A stretch of DNA of 20,000 bases. It comes from an uncultured virus (IMG/VR IMGVR_UViG_3300020047_006293). Lineage: Duplodnaviria > Heunggongvirae > Uroviricota > Caudoviricetes. The DNA lies in the IMG/VR virus record IMGVR_UViG_3300020047_006293; one strand, 5' to 3'. Each line of letters begins with the position of its first letter. Positions within the stretch are counted from its first letter, which is position 1. A program made the position numbers and the translations under genes. Shown one piece after another: positions 4,780 through 13,711 of the stretch. The notes beneath the pieces were generated by a model. The model saw nothing but the letters and a program-made list of their open reading frames with translations. It was not told the origin of the DNA and did not search any database.

Positions 4780-5952
4780 ATGCCAGGATTTTCAAGCAGC
4801 GATGCAATCGTAAACGCCCTCACCGCAGGGCAAACATTCAAAACGAACTGGACTAAGCAGTTCAACCCAACTACCGCTGCGGTAGCAGGAGAGGTACATA
4901 CCCTCTTTAGGGGCGCGGGTAACCCAGGGTCAGACGCGCTCTTTGACACAGGCTCTAACCTCACCTTTCAGGGTGTAACTGACCTAACAACTTCGGCAGG
5001 CTGCATGCAACACGGGGGCGACGTACAACCAACCTATTATAAGAGTTTGGCAGCAGCTTCAGCAGTAACAAGTGCAGCAACCACCGTACCAGGCTGGTTA
5101 GTATTAGTAGACGTAGTAGGCTTTTACCGCAAGACTTCAGTTACAACCACAACCGCAGAAGCCACCACAAACACACTAGGCTTTGGCGATACGTTTACCG
5201 CAGACGACACCACAGACGTTTGTACTTGGGGAACAAGGGTTAATAACCCTAGCAACGTTCTAACAGGTACACGGACTCGCCTGACAACAACGACTACACT
5301 CCCAGCAGGGCTGTCTCTAGCAACAGACTATTACTTCATCAAGATAGACGATAATACGTTTAAGCTAGCCACCTCGTATGCCAACGCAATAGCAGGGACG
5401 GCTATCAACATCACCTCTACCGGTACAGGCACACATACTATTTCACGCTTACTGCCTCGACATACAAACGGTGCGGGTGTCCAGGCGGTGATTTTCAACC
5501 CAGCAGCTACCGCCCTTGGTGCAGCAACGCCTAACCTTTCACTTGGTTACACGAACTCAGCCCAGACAGCATCACGGGCTACTCCTACTGTATTGCCCGT
5601 AGGCAAAACCGCAGCCTCCAACTCACTCGTACTTTACTCAGGTGCTTCGGGTGCGGGTAAGTTCAACTACACCGTACCGCTTGCAGCGGGTGACGCGGGT
5701 ATAGCTGAAATCAACACGATTCAGAACTCAACTAGCTATGTATCTGGTACTTACACGGTCGCCATGGTCAAGGAGATTACTCGTGTTCCTCTCAACGTCC
5801 TCGGACAGGCGGCAGAACGTAACCTACAGTTTGACTACCCATCACTACCTCGAATCTATGACGGTGCAGCGCTGTACTGGATGTACATGAGTTCAACGAC
5901 AACACCAGCTAACGCAACCTTCTCAGGCGATTTGACCTTTATTTGGAACTGA
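4780..5952 (+). CDS. Phage virion structural protein with inserted beta domain (paralogue of 3909-4769)
   Basis: 390 aa; RHTNGAGVQA, YTNSAQTASRAT, LAAGDAGIAEI, PRIYDGAAL, GDLTFIWN; AGGAG RBS. Confidence 0.75.
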   Translation: MPGFSSSDAIVNALTAGQTFKTNWTKQFNPTTAAVAGEVHTLFRGAGNPGSDALFDTGSNLTFQGVTDLTTSAGCMQHGGDVQPTYYKSLAAASAVTSAATTVPGWLVLVDVVGFYRKTSVTTTTAEATTNTLGFGDTFTADDTTDVCTWGTRVNNPSNVLTGTRTRLTTTTTLPAGLSLATDYYFIKIDDNTFKLATSYANAIAGTAINITSTGTGTHTISRLLPRHTNGAGVQAVIFNPAATALGAATPNLSLGYTNSAQTASRATPTVLPVGKTAASNSLVLYSGASGAGKFNYTVPLAAGDAGIAEINTIQNSTSYVSGTYTVAMVKEITRVPLNVLGQAAERNLQFDYPSLPRIYDGAALYWMYMSSTTTPANATFSGDLTFIWN

Positions 5953-5960
5953 GTTATACA

Positions 5961-6437
5961 ATGAAAGAAGAATATCGTCAACTAGCGGGCAACAGAGGAT
6001 TCGTATCTAACTACGGAAACTACAAGAACAAACACGGAGTACAGTTGCAAGGTACGACCAATAAAGGTTATTTGTTGGTTTATACTGGTGTGCGCCAAGA
6101 GCGTATTCACCGCCTAGTTGCCGAGGCATTCTTACCAAACCCCGAAAACAGGGAAGAAGTCAATCATATAGACGGACACAAAAACAACAACTCTGTAGAA
6201 AACCTTGAGTGGGCGACACACCTAGAGAATATGCAACACGCAGTACGAACAGGCTTGCATACGTTTGGTTTTGGAGAAAACTCTCGTAGGGCTATTCTTG
6301 ACAATGAAAAGGTTGCTTATATAAGAAAGCACTTCATTAAAAGACACCACGAGTTCGGGCTAACTGGACTTGGCAAGAAGTTTGGTGTAACGCCAACCAC
6401 AATATACAGGGTTGTGTATAACAAGAACTGGAACTAA
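5961..6437 (+). CDS. Free-standing HNH homing endonuclease (HNH_3 type) with C-terminal HTH-like DNA-binding domain
   Basis: IHRLVAEAFLPNPENREEVNHIDGHKNNNSVENLEWATHLENMQHA motif; LGKKFGVTPTTIYRVV HTH-like end; ATG 5961 preferred over the overlapping TTG 5943. Confidence 0.9.
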   Translation: MKEEYRQLAGNRGFVSNYGNYKNKHGVQLQGTTNKGYLLVYTGVRQERIHRLVAEAFLPNPENREEVNHIDGHKNNNSVENLEWATHLENMQHAVRTGLHTFGFGENSRRAILDNEKVAYIRKHFIKRHHEFGLTGLGKKFGVTPTTIYRVVYNKNWN

Positions 6438-7198: not shown

Positions 7199-7207
7199 TG
7201 GTATAAT
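7199..7207 (+). promoter_or_regulatory. Extended -10 promoter TGGTATAAT
   Basis: Perfect TGn-TATAAT directly after the stop codon at 7196, at the start of a non-coding stretch. Confidence 0.65.
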
Positions 7208-7212
7208 GTAGG

Positions 7213-7331
7213 TATCACAGTTCTGCCTCGTCGCAGATGAACTCTGAAGGTTTGCCCCGTCGTGGGAGCCCCGCTTGTGCCTCGTCGAAGATCAAACGGA
7301 CATTAACAAGTTTTAATGTCTGTTTTTCTTT
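7213..7331 (+). ncRNA. Candidate small structured RNA with three TGCCYCGTCG motifs
   Basis: Lies between the extended -10 and an intrinsic terminator; motif at 7224-7233, 7253-7262 and 7278-7287; the first two sit in hairpins (TCTGC-CTCGTC-GCAGA; GGTT..CCC-CGTCGT-GGG.AGCC). Confidence 0.5.
7294..7331 (+). terminator. Intrinsic terminator
   Basis: AAACGGACATTAA-CAAGTT-TTAATGTCTGTTT stem running into TTTTTCTTT. Confidence 0.65.
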
Positions 7332-7392: not shown

Positions 7393-7563
7393 ATGAGCAA
7401 CAAAATTGACTGGTGGGTATTAGTAATATCAGGCCTTCTTTTGATGCTGTTCTCTCATGGCAGCACGAATACCGTTGTAGGTGCGTTAGCTAACATAACG
7501 GGTCAGATAACGATATTGTTTGGTATAGTAGCGTTCATTAGACAACGAAGACGCAAGTCTTGA
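7393..7563 (+). CDS. Small two-TM membrane protein (56 aa, MSNKIDWWVLVISGLLLMLF...IVAFIRQRRRKS), not in ORF track
   Basis: Two hydrophobic segments and a basic C-terminal tail; TATACT 6 nt before the ATG suggests leaderless expression. Confidence 0.75.
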   Translation: MSNKIDWWVLVISGLLLMLFSHGSTNTVVGALANITGQITILFGIVAFIRQRRRKS

Positions 7564-7588
7564 CAAATTCTGTTATCTGTGGTAACAT
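7560..7588 (+). promoter_or_regulatory. Sigma70-type promoter for the CAP gene (probably leaderless)
   Basis: TTGACA (7560-7565), 17-nt spacer, TG-G-TAACAT (-10 at 7583-7588), ATG 6 nt later, no SD. Confidence 0.7.
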
Positions 7589-7594
7589 CTGGTC

Positions 7595-8107
7595 ATGAAA
7601 GTAAGCAAGACCGAAATACTCCTCATCGTACTAGCGATAGTTTCGATAGGTGGTTATATAGTCTACGCTACTCGACCCGTAGAGACTAAACCAGTCGCTC
7701 AGGTGTCTGAATATGATGTAGGTGCTCCAGATGCAACCGAAATACTCGAACTTGTAAACCAAGAGCGAGCAAAATACAATGTTGCACCATTAGTACTTGA
7801 TGATCGACTAAATAAATCAGCTGCTACAAAAGCTACTGATATGTATGAAAACCAATATTACGAGCACGTGAACCCATTAACTGGCAAGCAGGGCTACACA
7901 TACATATTTGATCAAGCACCAGAGTTATGTACGCATGCAAGCGAAAATCTGCTTGATTTTAGGGAAGGGGCTACTTCACGTGATATGTTCAACTCTTGGA
8001 TGCGATCTAAACCTCACAGAGAAGCTATGTTAGATGCACGCTACGATCTTATTGGTGAAGCGTATATAAATGGTTTTGGTGTTCAGCACTTCTGCGATGT
8101 AAAGTAA
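7595..8107 (+). CDS. Membrane-anchored CAP/SCP domain protein
   Basis: N-terminal TM; LELVNQERAKYNVAPLVLDDRLNKSAATKATDM..YYEH, SENL, WMRSKPHREAML CAP motifs. Confidence 0.9.
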   Translation: MKVSKTEILLIVLAIVSIGGYIVYATRPVETKPVAQVSEYDVGAPDATEILELVNQERAKYNVAPLVLDDRLNKSAATKATDMYENQYYEHVNPLTGKQGYTYIFDQAPELCTHASENLLDFREGATSRDMFNSWMRSKPHREAMLDARYDLIGEAYINGFGVQHFCDVK

Positions 8108-9619: not shown

Positions 9620-12600
9620 ATGTTCGACCTCCGAAAACTACTCGAAGCCGGAATAGCCCAAGTTAACCCTTTCGACGGCGGTAAAAACTGGAACACTGTA
9701 TACGCACAGAAGCAACCTCAGCAAGTGCAACGCCCAGTTCAACGACAGCCTCAAGCACAACGCCCACAGCCAAACCTCTTCGATCAAGCAGCTAATTTCG
9801 CTACAAAAGCGAACAATGCTGTATATGGTACAGGAATCAACGTCGGGAAAGCACTTGCAGAAGGCATAGCGCAACCATATGACTACTTGTCTAAGGGTAT
9901 CGGAGAAACTCTCGGCTACAACACTCAAGACGCTGTTAACGCTCGTCAGGCTCAAACAAACCTCCAGAACCAAAGTATTGACCTTACTCGTCAAGCAGCT
10001 CAGAAACTACGAGACCCAAGTACTACGCCTGACCAGAAGCAGCGTTGGCAGAGTTTCCTAAACAAACAGCAGCAACTCAACCAACTCAACTTCCAAGACA
10101 CAACAAACCGAAACAACGAGATTATCCAGCGCACAGACCCTATCAAGGGCGCAGCAAGTGTTGGCTCAATCGGTGCTGACGTAGCAACCCTCGGAATCGG
10201 TACTGGTGGTGTTCAGGCGGCAAAGACAGCAGCTCGAACAGGTGGACGAGGCGCACTCTATAGAGAACTCACAAACCAAGCAGTTAAATCAGGCGCAACC
10301 GCGCTTCCTTCTGGCTTTCTTCAGCCATACATAGATAAAGGGAACCAGGCAACAGCTCAGGATGTAGCCCTAAGTGGTGCAGCGGCTTTTGGACTCGGTG
10401 CAGCAATCCCTGGGGCAAGTTATGGACTATCAAAAGCATCTCCAGTAGTTGCAAGCGCAGCCAACGAAGCTCGACCATCTGTTATAGCTAAGAACCAAGC
10501 TAGGCAACACCCCGAAGTTCTCGGATATGACGACCAGTACGCTCAGTTGCAGCGACAATTCGATTCAACCCTAGACCCAGTAGCGCGACGTGCTACTTCT
10601 ATGGCTATGGCCGACAACCGTATGCAACGGCTACAGACCATGCGTCAGGTAGAGCAGCAGTATTTGCAGGGTGGGTATGTAAAAGTCCCTGGAAGTGAGC
10701 CTACACCAGCAAAGACATCCATAGGCTCACAATCCCCACAATCCCCATTGCAAGCAGGGGTATCCCCGCAAACAACAGTACCGGTGCCTTCTCAGACATC
10801 GCGTGCCATGAATAATATAGGCCAAGTAGGACAAGCGGAGAGAGCACAAAAGTTAGCGCCAGAACAACAATCAGTTCCATTTGATAATAGTATACCTCAA
10901 AACACCTCTCAGTTTGTCAAGAGTGCTAAGCGCTCCAAAGAACTTAGTGGTGACTTTAAGACCGAGCTCTCACAGCGCGTCTACACTCCAGAGGTGAATA
11001 AAGAACAACTCGCTAAATCAGCTCAATTCATCCAAGAAAACGGTGTAGATAATGCCGCAGCAGACGTTGTAGCACGCCTCAATACTAAGACTCGCAAGGT
11101 AGAGGCTCAGACTGTTTCAGACGCGATTGAAGCTGGTAAAGCGCTCGATGTAGTGGGTGACGAGAAATCACTCCAAAAAGCCACTGAAATATACGAGAAA
11201 CTTGCCGAAGAACTCACTAAAGCGGGTCAGACAATTCAGGCGGCCTCATTACTCAACAACCGCACTCCGCAAGGTCTCTTGTATGGAGCTGTTAAAAGCT
11301 TTAAGAAAGCTGGAGTTGAGATCACTCCTAAAATGCAGCAAGAGCTAGGCGGACTGATTGATCAGGTTAAAAAGACTACTGCTGACACCTACGATGGACA
11401 GCTGGCACGTTATAAGGTTGCTCAGTTTGTCAGTAAGAACATACCAACCAAGACTACAGATAAACTTGTCAACTTCTGGCGAGCCGGACTCCTCACGGCC
11501 CCAACAACAACCGGAGGAAATATCCTTGGTAACACCGTTGGAGCTATAAGCAAGGGAGTCGCACGGCCGGTCTCAATAGCATCTGATGCAATTATGAGCA
11601 AGTTCACAGGCAAACGTACTATCGCTATGCCCCAAGAACTCGCTTACTCCAAGGGCGCAGTGGAAGGAATATCCAAATTCAAACAATACATGGATACAGG
11701 TTTTGACGAGCGTAACGCCCTCAGCAAATACGACTCCAAAGAGATCAACTATGGTAATGGAAAAGCCGGAAAAGCCCTTAACGTCTACGTAAACGGGGTT
11801 TATCGTCTCATGTCGGCAGCTGACCAACCATTCTGGTATGGAGCTCGAAATAGCTCACTTAGCTCGCTTGCTAAAGCAGACGGCCTCAATAAAGGTCTAA
11901 GAGGAGAAGCGCTCGATGCTCACATCAACCAGATGATGAAATCTCCGCCAACTGACATGATGGAGCAAGCAACTCAGGAGGCCATGTATGCTACTTTCCA
12001 GAACAAGACAGGTTTGGGTGATGCGGCTGTTGGGTTTAAGCACGGACTCAACAAAATCGCCCCTGGACTCGGTGACTTCATTGTTCCATTCACCCAGGTT
12101 CCAGCTTCGATTGCTACTCGTATATTCCAATCAACCCCAGCAGGAACAGCAGCTGAACTGGTCAAACAGGTTATCAACACTCGAAAAGGCGGGAAGTTTG
12201 ATCAGAAGGCTATGGCTGATGCTATCGGAAACGGGGCATTTGGTACGGCAATTCTCGCCTCTGGGTACGCACTCGCCAACTCTGATGCTCTAACCTTTGG
12301 CTATCCACAAGACCAAAAAGAACGCGACCTGTGGGAACTCCAAGGGAAGCAGCCATACTCCGTAAAAGTCGGTGATAGGTGGTACTCACTCAACTACATG
12401 CAGCCTATCGGAACACTCCTCGCAATCGGTGGAAATGCCGCGAAAGAAACTAAGGATGGCTCAGATGCTTTAAGTGCTATCTCTAAGGCAATTGCGACGG
12501 GTGGACAGGCAATGATGAGCCAATCATTCCTAAAGGGTGTCAGTGGCGTACTCGACGCTATAGACGACCCTAAACGCTACGCTGAAACCTTTGTAGAGAA

Positions 12601-13711
12601 CACGGCCGGTTCACTGATTCCTAACTTCTTTAGGTCAGCTGCTCGCTCTATCGACCCAATGCAGAGAGATGTAAAGGGGCCAATAGAAGGCTTACAGGCT
12701 GGAGTCCCAGGACTTCGACAAGGACTCCCAGAAAAACAAGATGTGTTTGGTCAGCCGCTTCCAGCAAAGGACAACGCTCTCAACCAATTCCTCAACCCAC
12801 TACGACCATCTAAGACGAAGGGGGATGCGGTAACGACGGAACTTCAAAGGCTATTTGATAGTGGAAACGGTGTCATGCCAACAAACGCTAAAAAGGATGC
12901 CTTCAAAGACACGACGCTCACAGATCAGCAAGTACGTGAGATTAACGCCGCAGCAGGGCCAAAGATCAAAGACGAGTACATGAAACTCCTCTCTGACCCT
13001 GAGTACGACAAATTGAGCGATGAGCAAAAAAAGAAAGCCTTGTCGGACGTAAACGACACAGTATACGGAGCATTGAAAGCTAAGTATGGAGTTGAGAACG
13101 GTCTTATCTCTAAAGATAAAGTAAAGCTTGATTCTAAGCAGCGTAGCTATCTTGCAGGTGATGGAGTCGCTTCACTTGGGGAGGGTCAAACATACAAGCA
13201 GAAATACGATGCTGCGCTTTCTGAGTACAACGATAACAAAGACACATGGTCTCCTATCGAACGTGCCAAGAAGGAAAAGAACCTCAAATACTTAACTGTC
13301 CAGAAGGACTTTGAGAACGACACGGTGACTCTCTATGGAATGTCTAAAGATGATGTCTATAACCTCGTCTCCAATGACAAAGACGGTAATAAATTCGTTG
13401 AACAAATCCTCGCGTATGGTGATGCACTCGTAGCCGCTGGACTCTCTAAGACTAATAAATTCCGAGATAAATACGGAAATGTCTCTTTGTATGCTTCTGG
13501 AACCTCAAGCAGTGGCGGCTCAAAAAAGAAAACAGGCTCAAGCTCTCGCAAAGGCCTTACCAAATACCCAACGACTGACATAGCCAATACCGCCGCCAAA
13601 GATACCTACTCAACCCTCTCTCGATTACTCGCCGGAACTACAGCAAAAACATCCAAACCGAAACAAATAGGACGAAAAGTCGCACTAAAGAAGATAACGG
13701 TAAGGAGTTAA
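9620..13711 (+). CDS. Large internal virion/DNA ejection protein (large polyvalent protein-like)
   Basis: 1363 aa, mostly helical; FIVPFTQVPASI, QPYSVKVGDRWYSLNYMQPIG, QSFLKGVSGVLDAI, LPEKQDVFGQP motifs recalled from podovirus internal proteins; basic C-terminal tail. Confidence 0.7.
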   Translation: MFDLRKLLEAGIAQVNPFDGGKNWNTVYAQKQPQQVQRPVQRQPQAQRPQPNLFDQAANFATKANNAVYGTGINVGKALAEGIAQPYDYLSKGIGETLGYNTQDAVNARQAQTNLQNQSIDLTRQAAQKLRDPSTTPDQKQRWQSFLNKQQQLNQLNFQDTTNRNNEIIQRTDPIKGAASVGSIGADVATLGIGTGGVQAAKTAARTGGRGALYRELTNQAVKSGATALPSGFLQPYIDKGNQATAQDVALSGAAAFGLGAAIPGASYGLSKASPVVASAANEARPSVIAKNQARQHPEVLGYDDQYAQLQRQFDSTLDPVARRATSMAMADNRMQRLQTMRQVEQQYLQGGYVKVPGSEPTPAKTSIGSQSPQSPLQAGVSPQTTVPVPSQTSRAMNNIGQVGQAERAQKLAPEQQSVPFDNSIPQNTSQFVKSAKRSKELSGDFKTELSQRVYTPEVNKEQLAKSAQFIQENGVDNAAADVVARLNTKTRKVEAQTVSDAIEAGKALDVVGDEKSLQKATEIYEKLAEELTKAGQTIQAASLLNNRTPQGLLYGAVKSFKKAGVEITPKMQQELGGLIDQVKKTTADTYDGQLARYKVAQFVSKNIPTKTTDKLVNFWRAGLLTAPTTTGGNILGNTVGAISKGVARPVSIASDAIMSKFTGKRTIAMPQELAYSKGAVEGISKFKQYMDTGFDERNALSKYDSKEINYGNGKAGKALNVYVNGVYRLMSAADQPFWYGARNSSLSSLAKADGLNKGLRGEALDAHINQMMKSPPTDMMEQATQEAMYATFQNKTGLGDAAVGFKHGLNKIAPGLGDFIVPFTQVPASIATRIFQSTPAGTAAELVKQVINTRKGGKFDQKAMADAIGNGAFGTAILASGYALANSDALTFGYPQDQKERDLWELQGKQPYSVKVGDRWYSLNYMQPIGTLLAIGGNAAKETKDGSDALSAISKAIATGGQAMMSQSFLKGVSGVLDAIDDPKRYAETFVENTAGSLIPNFFRSAARSIDPMQRDVKGPIEGLQAGVPGLRQGLPEKQDVFGQPLPAKDNALNQFLNPLRPSKTKGDAVTTELQRLFDSGNGVMPTNAKKDAFKDTTLTDQQVREINAAAGPKIKDEYMKLLSDPEYDKLSDEQKKKALSDVNDTVYGALKAKYGVENGLISKDKVKLDSKQRSYLAGDGVASLGEGQTYKQKYDAALSEYNDNKDTWSPIERAKKEKNLKYLTVQKDFENDTVTLYGMSKDDVYNLVSNDKDGNKFVEQILAYGDALVAAGLSKTNKFRDKYGNVSLYASGTSSSGGSKKKTGSSSRKGLTKYPTTDIANTAAKDTYSTLSRLLAGTTAKTSKPKQIGRKVALKKITVRS
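10701..10880 (-). CDS. Nested antisense two-TM membrane protein (59 aa: MELIVVLALTFVLSPLVLLGLYYSWHAMSEKAPVLLFAGIPLLAMGIVGIVSLWMSLLV)
   Basis: ATG at 10880, TAG at 10703-10701; two hydrophobic helices and a short polar loop; coincides with the P/Q/S/T linker of the host gene; promoter elements immediately upstream. Confidence 0.65.
   Translation of the reverse strand: MELIVVLALTFVLSPLVLLGLYYSWHAMSEKAPVLLFAGIPLLAMGIVGIVSLWMSLLV
10889..10920 (-). promoter_or_regulatory. Antisense promoter-like element inside the 1363-aa gene
   Basis: Minus strand reads TTGACA (10920-10915), 20 nt, TATACT (10894-10889), 8 nt, ATG. The spacer is longer than canonical. Confidence 0.5.

Follow-up and report, generated by a model that had tools for sequence, protein, structure and literature searches.

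A putative exchangeable slot for antisense membrane-protein genes inside the ejection-protein gene of podovirus-like phages

SieA of phage P22 is encoded by a separate gene that lies beside the ejection genes, and the morons of tailed phages are inserted between genes. Escape mutants in gp16 and gp20 tie SieA to the ejection proteins, and both SieA and these proteins are highly diverse (PMC10883804, partial text); T4 Imm is listed as an injection blocker (PMC11436027, partial text). The olg1/gene 10 pair of Pseudomonas phage Fc02 is an opposite-strand overlap with a 7.9-kDa product that has exclusion activity (PMC9936078, partial text), and in the S. aureus Tha/Ith system a small antisense gene is read from a constitutive promoter of its own, while transcription from the other direction switches it over the phage life cycle (PMC11087260, partial text). 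In viral overprinting, overlaps are favoured where one of the two products is disordered (PMC8227390, partial text).

Here we describe an antisense gene that lies within an ejection-protein gene, in a 20,000-nucleotide stretch of DNA from an uncultured virus (hereafter, the window). The features at this site are as follows.

9620..13711, plus strand: 1363-aa internal virion (ejection) protein, with a mosaic N-terminal region (~1-420) and an all-helical conserved core from ~426 (from PHROG, tblastn, fold and identity profile)
10700..10894, plus strand: P/Q/S/T-rich linker, codons ~361-425, the sense read-out of the antisense cassette, at the variable N-terminus/core junction
10701..10880, minus strand: nested antisense gene, 59 aa, predicted two-helix membrane hairpin (MELIVVLAL...; from the ORF, codon bias, recoding null, AlphaFold and the orthologue in the relative L045)
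10889..10894, minus strand: -10 box TATACT, 8 nt 5' of the ATG, giving a near-leaderless start; sense read-out Ser-Ile; kept in L045
10915..10920, minus strand: TTGACA at a 20-nt spacer, probably incidental; CTCACG in L045

The window's gene resembles that of P22 SieA in encoding a phage membrane protein (predicted here), in belonging to a short-tailed phage and in its association with an ejection protein, but it is nested inside an ejection gene instead of beside one, SieA is prophage-expressed, and we found no sequence link between SieA and the window's protein. Like morons such as HK97 gp15 (PMC10883804, partial text), it appears to be an independent, horizontally exchanged unit that encodes a membrane protein within the late operon; unlike them, it is contained entirely within another gene, the complementary strand being translated into a stretch of a virion protein, and no terminator is evident for it. 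It shares with Fc02 olg1 the overlap of phage genes on opposite strands, although olg1 lies in a lysis-lysogeny switch region, overlaps an accessory gene and has an SD-led start, and the partial text of PMC9936078 does not describe an exchangeable slot within a virion protein. The likeness to Tha/Ith is that of a small antisense gene with its own promoter, to which a switch by opposing transcription can be added here only conjecturally; Ith, in contrast, inhibits a HEPN RNase in a lysogeny module and is not described in the partial text of PMC11087260 as a membrane protein nested in a structural gene. As in viral overprinting, the overlap falls at a low-complexity linker, where a disordered product favours overlap (PMC8227390, partial text). 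Overprinting, however, usually places one new frame in an old gene, whereas here the constraint lies on the antisense frame, whose content varies between relatives at a fixed site and promoter position. Morons and overlapping genes are both known kinds; a nested antisense slot in an ejection gene is a variant for which we found no prior description, and a full-text literature search, with most subscription journals and supplements outside its coverage, returned no account of membrane genes that lie antisense within those for ejection proteins.

The antisense frame and the gene that contains it

By homology or fold, the 1363-aa protein is an internal virion protein. It matches PHROG 6651 (internal virion protein, E=2e-16) and, by tblastn, internal virion protein D of several podophages. 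The core, modelled at pLDDT 87, has its fold matches among predicted internal virion and polyvalent proteins, the Foldseek match to a Pelagibacter phage internal virion protein model having E=4e-18 and TM 0.56; the PDB returned no match to the core by sequence or Foldseek. Among the homologues listed (120 of 137), the core from about residue 426 is shared and the N-termini are highly variable. ART-PolyVal or Zeta-like Pfam domains were detected above cut-off in the N-terminal regions of 5 of 12 homologues scanned, with weak ParB matches in 2 of the 12; P0046, P0055, P0058, P0091 and P0105 carry ART-PolyVal, Zeta-toxin-like or PARP-like domains in the variable N-terminus. A domain scan of the window's own protein found no ART-PolyVal, Zeta-toxin-like or ParB-like domain.

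The minus strand of the window reads TTGACA (10920-10915), 20 nt, TATACT (10894-10889), 8 nt and an ATG at 10880 that opens 59 codons and a TAG, ending at 10701. The letters are thus as the initial annotation gave them, as are its count of NTN codons (33/59) and its placement of the frame precisely over the low-complexity P/Q/S/T linker (10701..10880 within 10700..10894). Sense position 3 coincides with antisense codon position 2 in the overlap. By the genetic code, an antisense NTN codon therefore forces an A-ending sense codon, and antisense positions 1 and 3 set sense positions 1 and 2 to give Pro, Gln, Ser, Thr, Ala and Lys. Since this register converts hydrophobic NTN codons into A-ending polar ones, a membrane gene would read on the sense strand as a tolerated polar linker.

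The sense codons carry the expected mark. Third-position A reaches 0.54 in the overlap compared to 0.30 elsewhere in the gene (binomial P=3e-5), in agreement with the excess that had been claimed, and the highest A-ending count in any non-overlapping 59-codon window is 28, versus 33 here. The bias persists within amino acids: Gln is CAA in 9/10 cases in the overlap versus 46/96 elsewhere in the gene, and Thr is ACA in 5/5 versus 27/89. We then kept the linker peptide and redrew its synonymous codons from the gene's own usage 5000 times. Observed antisense mean hydropathy was 1.72, against 0.41±0.37 under this recoding null (P=0.0002), so the linker peptide itself does not force antisense hydrophobicity. 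AlphaFold returned a helical hairpin for the 59-aa product (H2-30 and H33-58), an outcome expected for any hydrophobic hairpin; from hydropathy and this fold, the product is predicted to be an integral membrane protein. Its only Pfam match was a sub-threshold one to DUF6463, and no intrinsic terminator was called 3' of the antisense stop in the window.

Comparison with L045, the closest relative (74.5% identical in the core), adds evidence from substitutions. L045 retains TATACT-N8-ATG, has an extended -10 (TGG) and no TTGACA, and its cassette product is a 65-aa, two-helix protein 39% identical to the window's. Over the ungapped overlap, antisense identity is 39% and sense-peptide identity 19%. 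Differences at sense positions 1/2/3 run 0.52/0.60/0.38 in the overlap versus 0.16/0.09/0.57 in the core. When four promoter-anchored pairs were pooled, antisense position 2 differed in 45 of 195 codons and position 3 in 83 of 195 (P=6e-5). Judged by these substitutions, selection in the overlap follows the antisense frame, as the initial annotation had proposed; its central claim, a dual-coding antisense membrane gene within a variable linker of the ejection protein, is likewise supported by comparison. We conclude that the antisense ORF is very probably a real protein-coding gene.

One site, one register and unrelated products

Neither the core nor the 59-aa protein retrieved any locus as a single query sequence; alignment queries were needed. 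These yielded 123 loci, of which 87 (window included) were left after duplicates and loci cut before the linker had been dropped. To count as a cassette, a register-1 ORF had to start with ATG, reach 25 aa or more and contain a TM-like stretch close to the core boundary. A membrane ORF at the same site and register was present at 21 of the 87 loci; the other 66, many of them with P/Q/S/T/A-rich linkers, have none. Hydropathy over the whole ORF lies within the recoding null (P>0.25) for 7 of the 21. The N-terminal region does not differ in length between proteins with and without a cassette (P=0.55).

The 21 loci were chosen by the TM criterion alone, independently of the -10 box. A -10-like hexamer stands at exactly N8 in 17 of them, as against 0-4 at any other gap tested and a background of 1.4%. 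The combination of register 1, linker, TM and -10 at N8 was found for 17 of 104 linker-window ATGs versus 1 of 1364 register-1 ATGs elsewhere, and TGnTAYAVT occurs near the site at 13/21 cassette loci versus 1/66 others. TTGACA or TCGACA at a 17-nt spacer precedes 7 of the 21 (background 6/3050). The window's TTGACA was rejected as a working -35: it is not conserved, and because the orthologue in L045 has CTCACG at that place it probably does not function as one. In the proposed promoter, the TATACT half, which L045 keeps, is supported, and the -35 at 20 nt, which L045 lacks, is not; in relatives that have a -35, its spacer is 17 nt. Our promoter scan allows 16-18 nt spacers only and hence did not call the antisense promoter as written; it called 10 sites in the window compared to 19.5 in shuffles, so that the case for the promoter comes from comparison with relatives. 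At the sequence level, then, the cassettes have the own host-type promoter of morons (-10 at N8, -35 at 17 nt), and we infer that they are read from it with almost no leader.

A second search returned 80 loci. Of these, 45 were absent from the first set and of sufficient length, and served as the held-out set. The same rule identified cassettes at 3 of the 45, one belonging to the already seen family ending FGGPV, and none of the three passed the preset test for a -10 at N8. TTGAC(A/T) at 17 nt was present in all three versus 3/1334 in the background, by a test defined after the data had been seen. The held-out set thus confirms the slot, at a lower frequency and with weaker -10 boxes.

In total, 24 of 132 distinct loci carry a cassette and 108, most of the relatives, do not by the criteria used; the linker is variable, and L045 keeps the ORF and the -10 box. 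All 24 are fully nested within an open sense frame, and none is inserted between genes as a moron would be. Their products, of 29-92 aa with 1-2 TM helices, form several unrelated groups. In L018 and L079 two antisense membrane ORFs lie in tandem, 6 and 9 nt apart, as a nested two-gene operon. A sense-peptide signature of the promoter, widened after inspection, caught 18 of the 21 cassettes with one false call in 66 on DNA-checked loci; it flags 26 of 117 protein-only homologues, compared to a 4% background. Some phages of this podovirus-like family, as their sequences read, carry an antisense gene for a 1-2 TM protein in the linker before the conserved core, always in one register. The initial annotation had seen correctly a single nested gene but missed this family-wide slot.

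Database searches connected the products to little. Pfam at E<=0.01 had no match for 20 relatives' cassette proteins, PHROG none for 11 of them, no homologue of a known Sie protein or sequence link to known exclusion families was found among them, and the ESM Atlas gave only leads under 0.9. Searches for free-standing homologues with a two-sequence profile and with L104 found none. Three repeat-protein matches were judged spurious; the L081 search recovered its nested relative only, plus two matches judged to be chance, one of them inspected. Within the fetched loci no cassette copy lies outside the ejection gene. Three 46-aa members of the P0012 cluster were set aside, having no match to the P0012 protein. 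No hairpin is shared among 21 folds 3' of cassettes, and Rfam gave nothing relevant near the site.

Few antisense protein genes that lie completely within another gene have comparative support in phages. At this site the arrangement recurs with different gene families, across proteins only ~30% identical, offering a natural series for how overlapping genes arise and persist. Low-complexity linkers of virion proteins can thus reflect concealed membrane genes that annotation leaves out.

Cassette turnover, host and timing

Cassette presence is patchy among related phages, as is that of morons (24/132 loci). On a FastTree of the core covering 85 of the 87 rows it requires 11 changes, at least 10 of them forced by supported branches; presence is clustered (shuffled mean 19) and includes near-copies, so the 24 loci are not 24 independent events. 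L095 has a cassette, and L094 and L098, with 79-82% core identity, do not. Conversely, the FGGP-type cassette sits on cores 48-58% identical whose N-termini are largely unrelated (mostly short local matches, 25-46%). The initial annotation had proposed that the antisense gene is genetically locked to its ejection protein; both patterns speak against this. Several unrelated families, tandem copies and patchiness on the tree together argue that the site is probably an exchangeable accessory-gene (moron) slot within an essential ejection-protein gene.

Contigs of one run, X1, bear on a candidate swap:

10682..10888, no strand assigned: segment unmatched by a close relative's contig from run X1, with matching flanks; candidate allele swap, judged from its flanks

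One contig of run X1 follows the window's allele across 10441-10814. A second aligns to 10889-11070 and to 22 nt whose last position is 10681, leaving out 207 nt; its break falls exactly at the -10 box, though the short side is 22 nt and the likeness threshold was 80. All 13 flank differences checked in the X1 contig are synonymous. The flank matches suggest a second allele in the sample of this run.

One homologue lies on a phage-sized contig within a Saccharibacteria-labelled MAG, and the other seven genome matches bear other labels or none, making binning weak evidence for the host. We sampled 15 non-phage regions of this MAG (G004, L142-L156; ~297 of 800 kb). A strict -10 box stands 6-9 nt before the first ATG of 54 of 247 MAG ORFs, with 8 and 7 at control offsets, and before 4 of 307 phage ORFs; SD-like motifs precede 9% of the MAG (host) ORFs versus 42% of phage ORFs. 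The cassette is thus built like a host gene and differs in this from the surrounding late genes. CPR bacteria are the probable hosts; for one such group, the Saccharibacteria, means of genetic manipulation are available (PMC10633639). The -10 box near the ATG in about a fifth of G004 ORFs, with few SD motifs, suggests widespread leaderless genes; a full-text search returned no description of this, and the partial texts of PMC12641261 and PMC12641178 have nothing on leaderless CPR genes.

CPR phages are reported to be mostly temperate (10.1101/2025.02.25.640227, partial text). Expression in the lysogen had been proposed for the antisense gene, a claim for which the records give no support: no tyrosine integrase was found in 8 of 8 cassette-bearing phage records, nor a resolvase or HTH_3 in 5 of 5, most records being partial and two at least 90% complete. 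One cassette-bearing record is flagged as a provirus, and the copy in L005 lies in a 353-kb contig. The record from which the window comes (P0001) has 81,356 nt, compared to 38-42 kb in most complete relatives among the homologues listed, an excess that a doubled assembly, or flanks around a provirus, might explain.

Possible function and competing readings

We propose the following working scheme. The sequence that encodes the core's first residues also holds the promoter. Where the mosaic N-terminus meets the core, a polar linker would be tolerated and recombination is likely, which would let cassettes be gained, lost and swapped. Host sigma-70 RNA polymerase would make a near-leaderless mRNA on DNA entry, or in a provirus, so that antisense expression would be independent of the late programme. 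The small protein would insert in the cytoplasmic membrane, and later sense transcription of the virion operon would probably damp the antisense gene (cf. tha/ith; PMC11087260, partial text). As a guess, cassette proteins may act at the membrane to keep out competing phages, in the manner of P22 SieA. Superinfection exclusion is our best guess for the function, held tentatively by analogy with SieA and Fc02 olg1; the products are unrelated to one another, and one shared function is therefore an assumption. The boldest reading, possible but less likely than not, is a standing cargo slot of probable CPR phages in which backward membrane genes read as harmless linker, unrelated exclusion microproteins are gained, swapped and stacked, and late transcription serves as an off-switch. 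If it holds, each phage would shut out rivals early and avoid jamming its own injector, and cassette gain would leave gene number unchanged, so that gene callers would miss the whole repertoire. The set offers some two dozen microproteins, from phages of barely studied CPR bacteria, as candidates for entry blocking or envelope modification.

The cassettes could instead be real nested morons that remodel the host envelope (pili, receptors, transporters or attachment to the host's own host), the site being a safe harbour only. We consider this rather unlikely, even though the cassette families have no relation to one another and follow neither core nor N-terminus, the acidic, Cys-bearing tails that follow one TM helix in L005, L018 and L042 suggest outside-facing binding domains, and the operon is closely preceded by membrane and CAP morons that stand free and share the promoter type. 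No partner in the host is known, and a constant slot at the ejection core boundary would be explained by nothing but linker tolerance and recombination. Improbable to a greater degree is that they encode small membrane toxins, of an abortive-infection or type I toxin-antitoxin-like kind, which the sense mRNA across the same site would restrain. Single-helix members of 29-39 aa do resemble type I toxins in size and hydrophobicity, complementarity to the late mRNA is full and built in, and antisense operons switch off phage immunity in S. aureus (PMC11087260, partial text). The sense RNA, however, is late and so would be absent when the host-type promoter first fires. Type I systems have a small antitoxin RNA and a structured, repressed leader; here only 8 nt separate the -10 box from the ATG, leaving no leader to hold translation shut, no Rfam match lies near the site, and no family match was found for the cassette proteins.

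A cognate immunity protein or plug, neutralising a membrane-active or toxic part of its own ejection protein, would fit the absolute physical linkage and the ART-PolyVal, Zeta-toxin-like or ParB-like domains in some relatives' N-terminal regions. It is nevertheless very improbable, given that the window's protein lacks any such domain, that sister proteins with 79-82% identical cores do without a cassette, and that the FGGP-type cassette pairs with largely unrelated N-termini on cores 48-58% identical. In our judgement the least probable reading is that no protein is made, the ORF being either incidental to a promoter for antisense RNA or a by-product of the linker's composition. The register is often open opposite P/Q/S/T linkers (by recoding, P(open) is 0.09 for the window's linker and up to 0.84 in GC-rich genes), but such a by-product would leave unexplained the sparing of antisense codon position 2 by substitutions, the fixed distance from ATG to -10 box, a hydropathy far above the recoding null and the 66 of 87 loci, many P/Q/S/T/A-rich, that have no such ORF.

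The free-standing genes upstream of the operon are these.

7393..7563, plus strand: free-standing 56-aa membrane-protein moron, TATACT-N6-ATG, in an ordinary intergenic position, with a promoter type like the cassette's
7595..8107, plus strand: CAP/SCP-domain protein with an N-terminal membrane anchor, TTGACA-17-TAACAT-N6-ATG

The morons at 7393-8107 sit just before the first putative ejection gene, and the phage of L005 has a CAP-like gene at the equivalent site on the opposite strand (L127:4688-5143). At 7200-7330, a TGG-TATAAT promoter-like site is followed by ~120 nt of non-coding DNA with two GCCTCGTCG copies; a terminator-like hairpin (7294-7325) closes the segment, a candidate small RNA with no Rfam match. 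An HNH endonuclease gene (5943-6437) is inserted between tail or fibre genes. In the provirus record G007, a 494-aa P-loop ATPase (L133:13409-14890) that matches PHROG 5156 (unknown function) lies near the end of the record.
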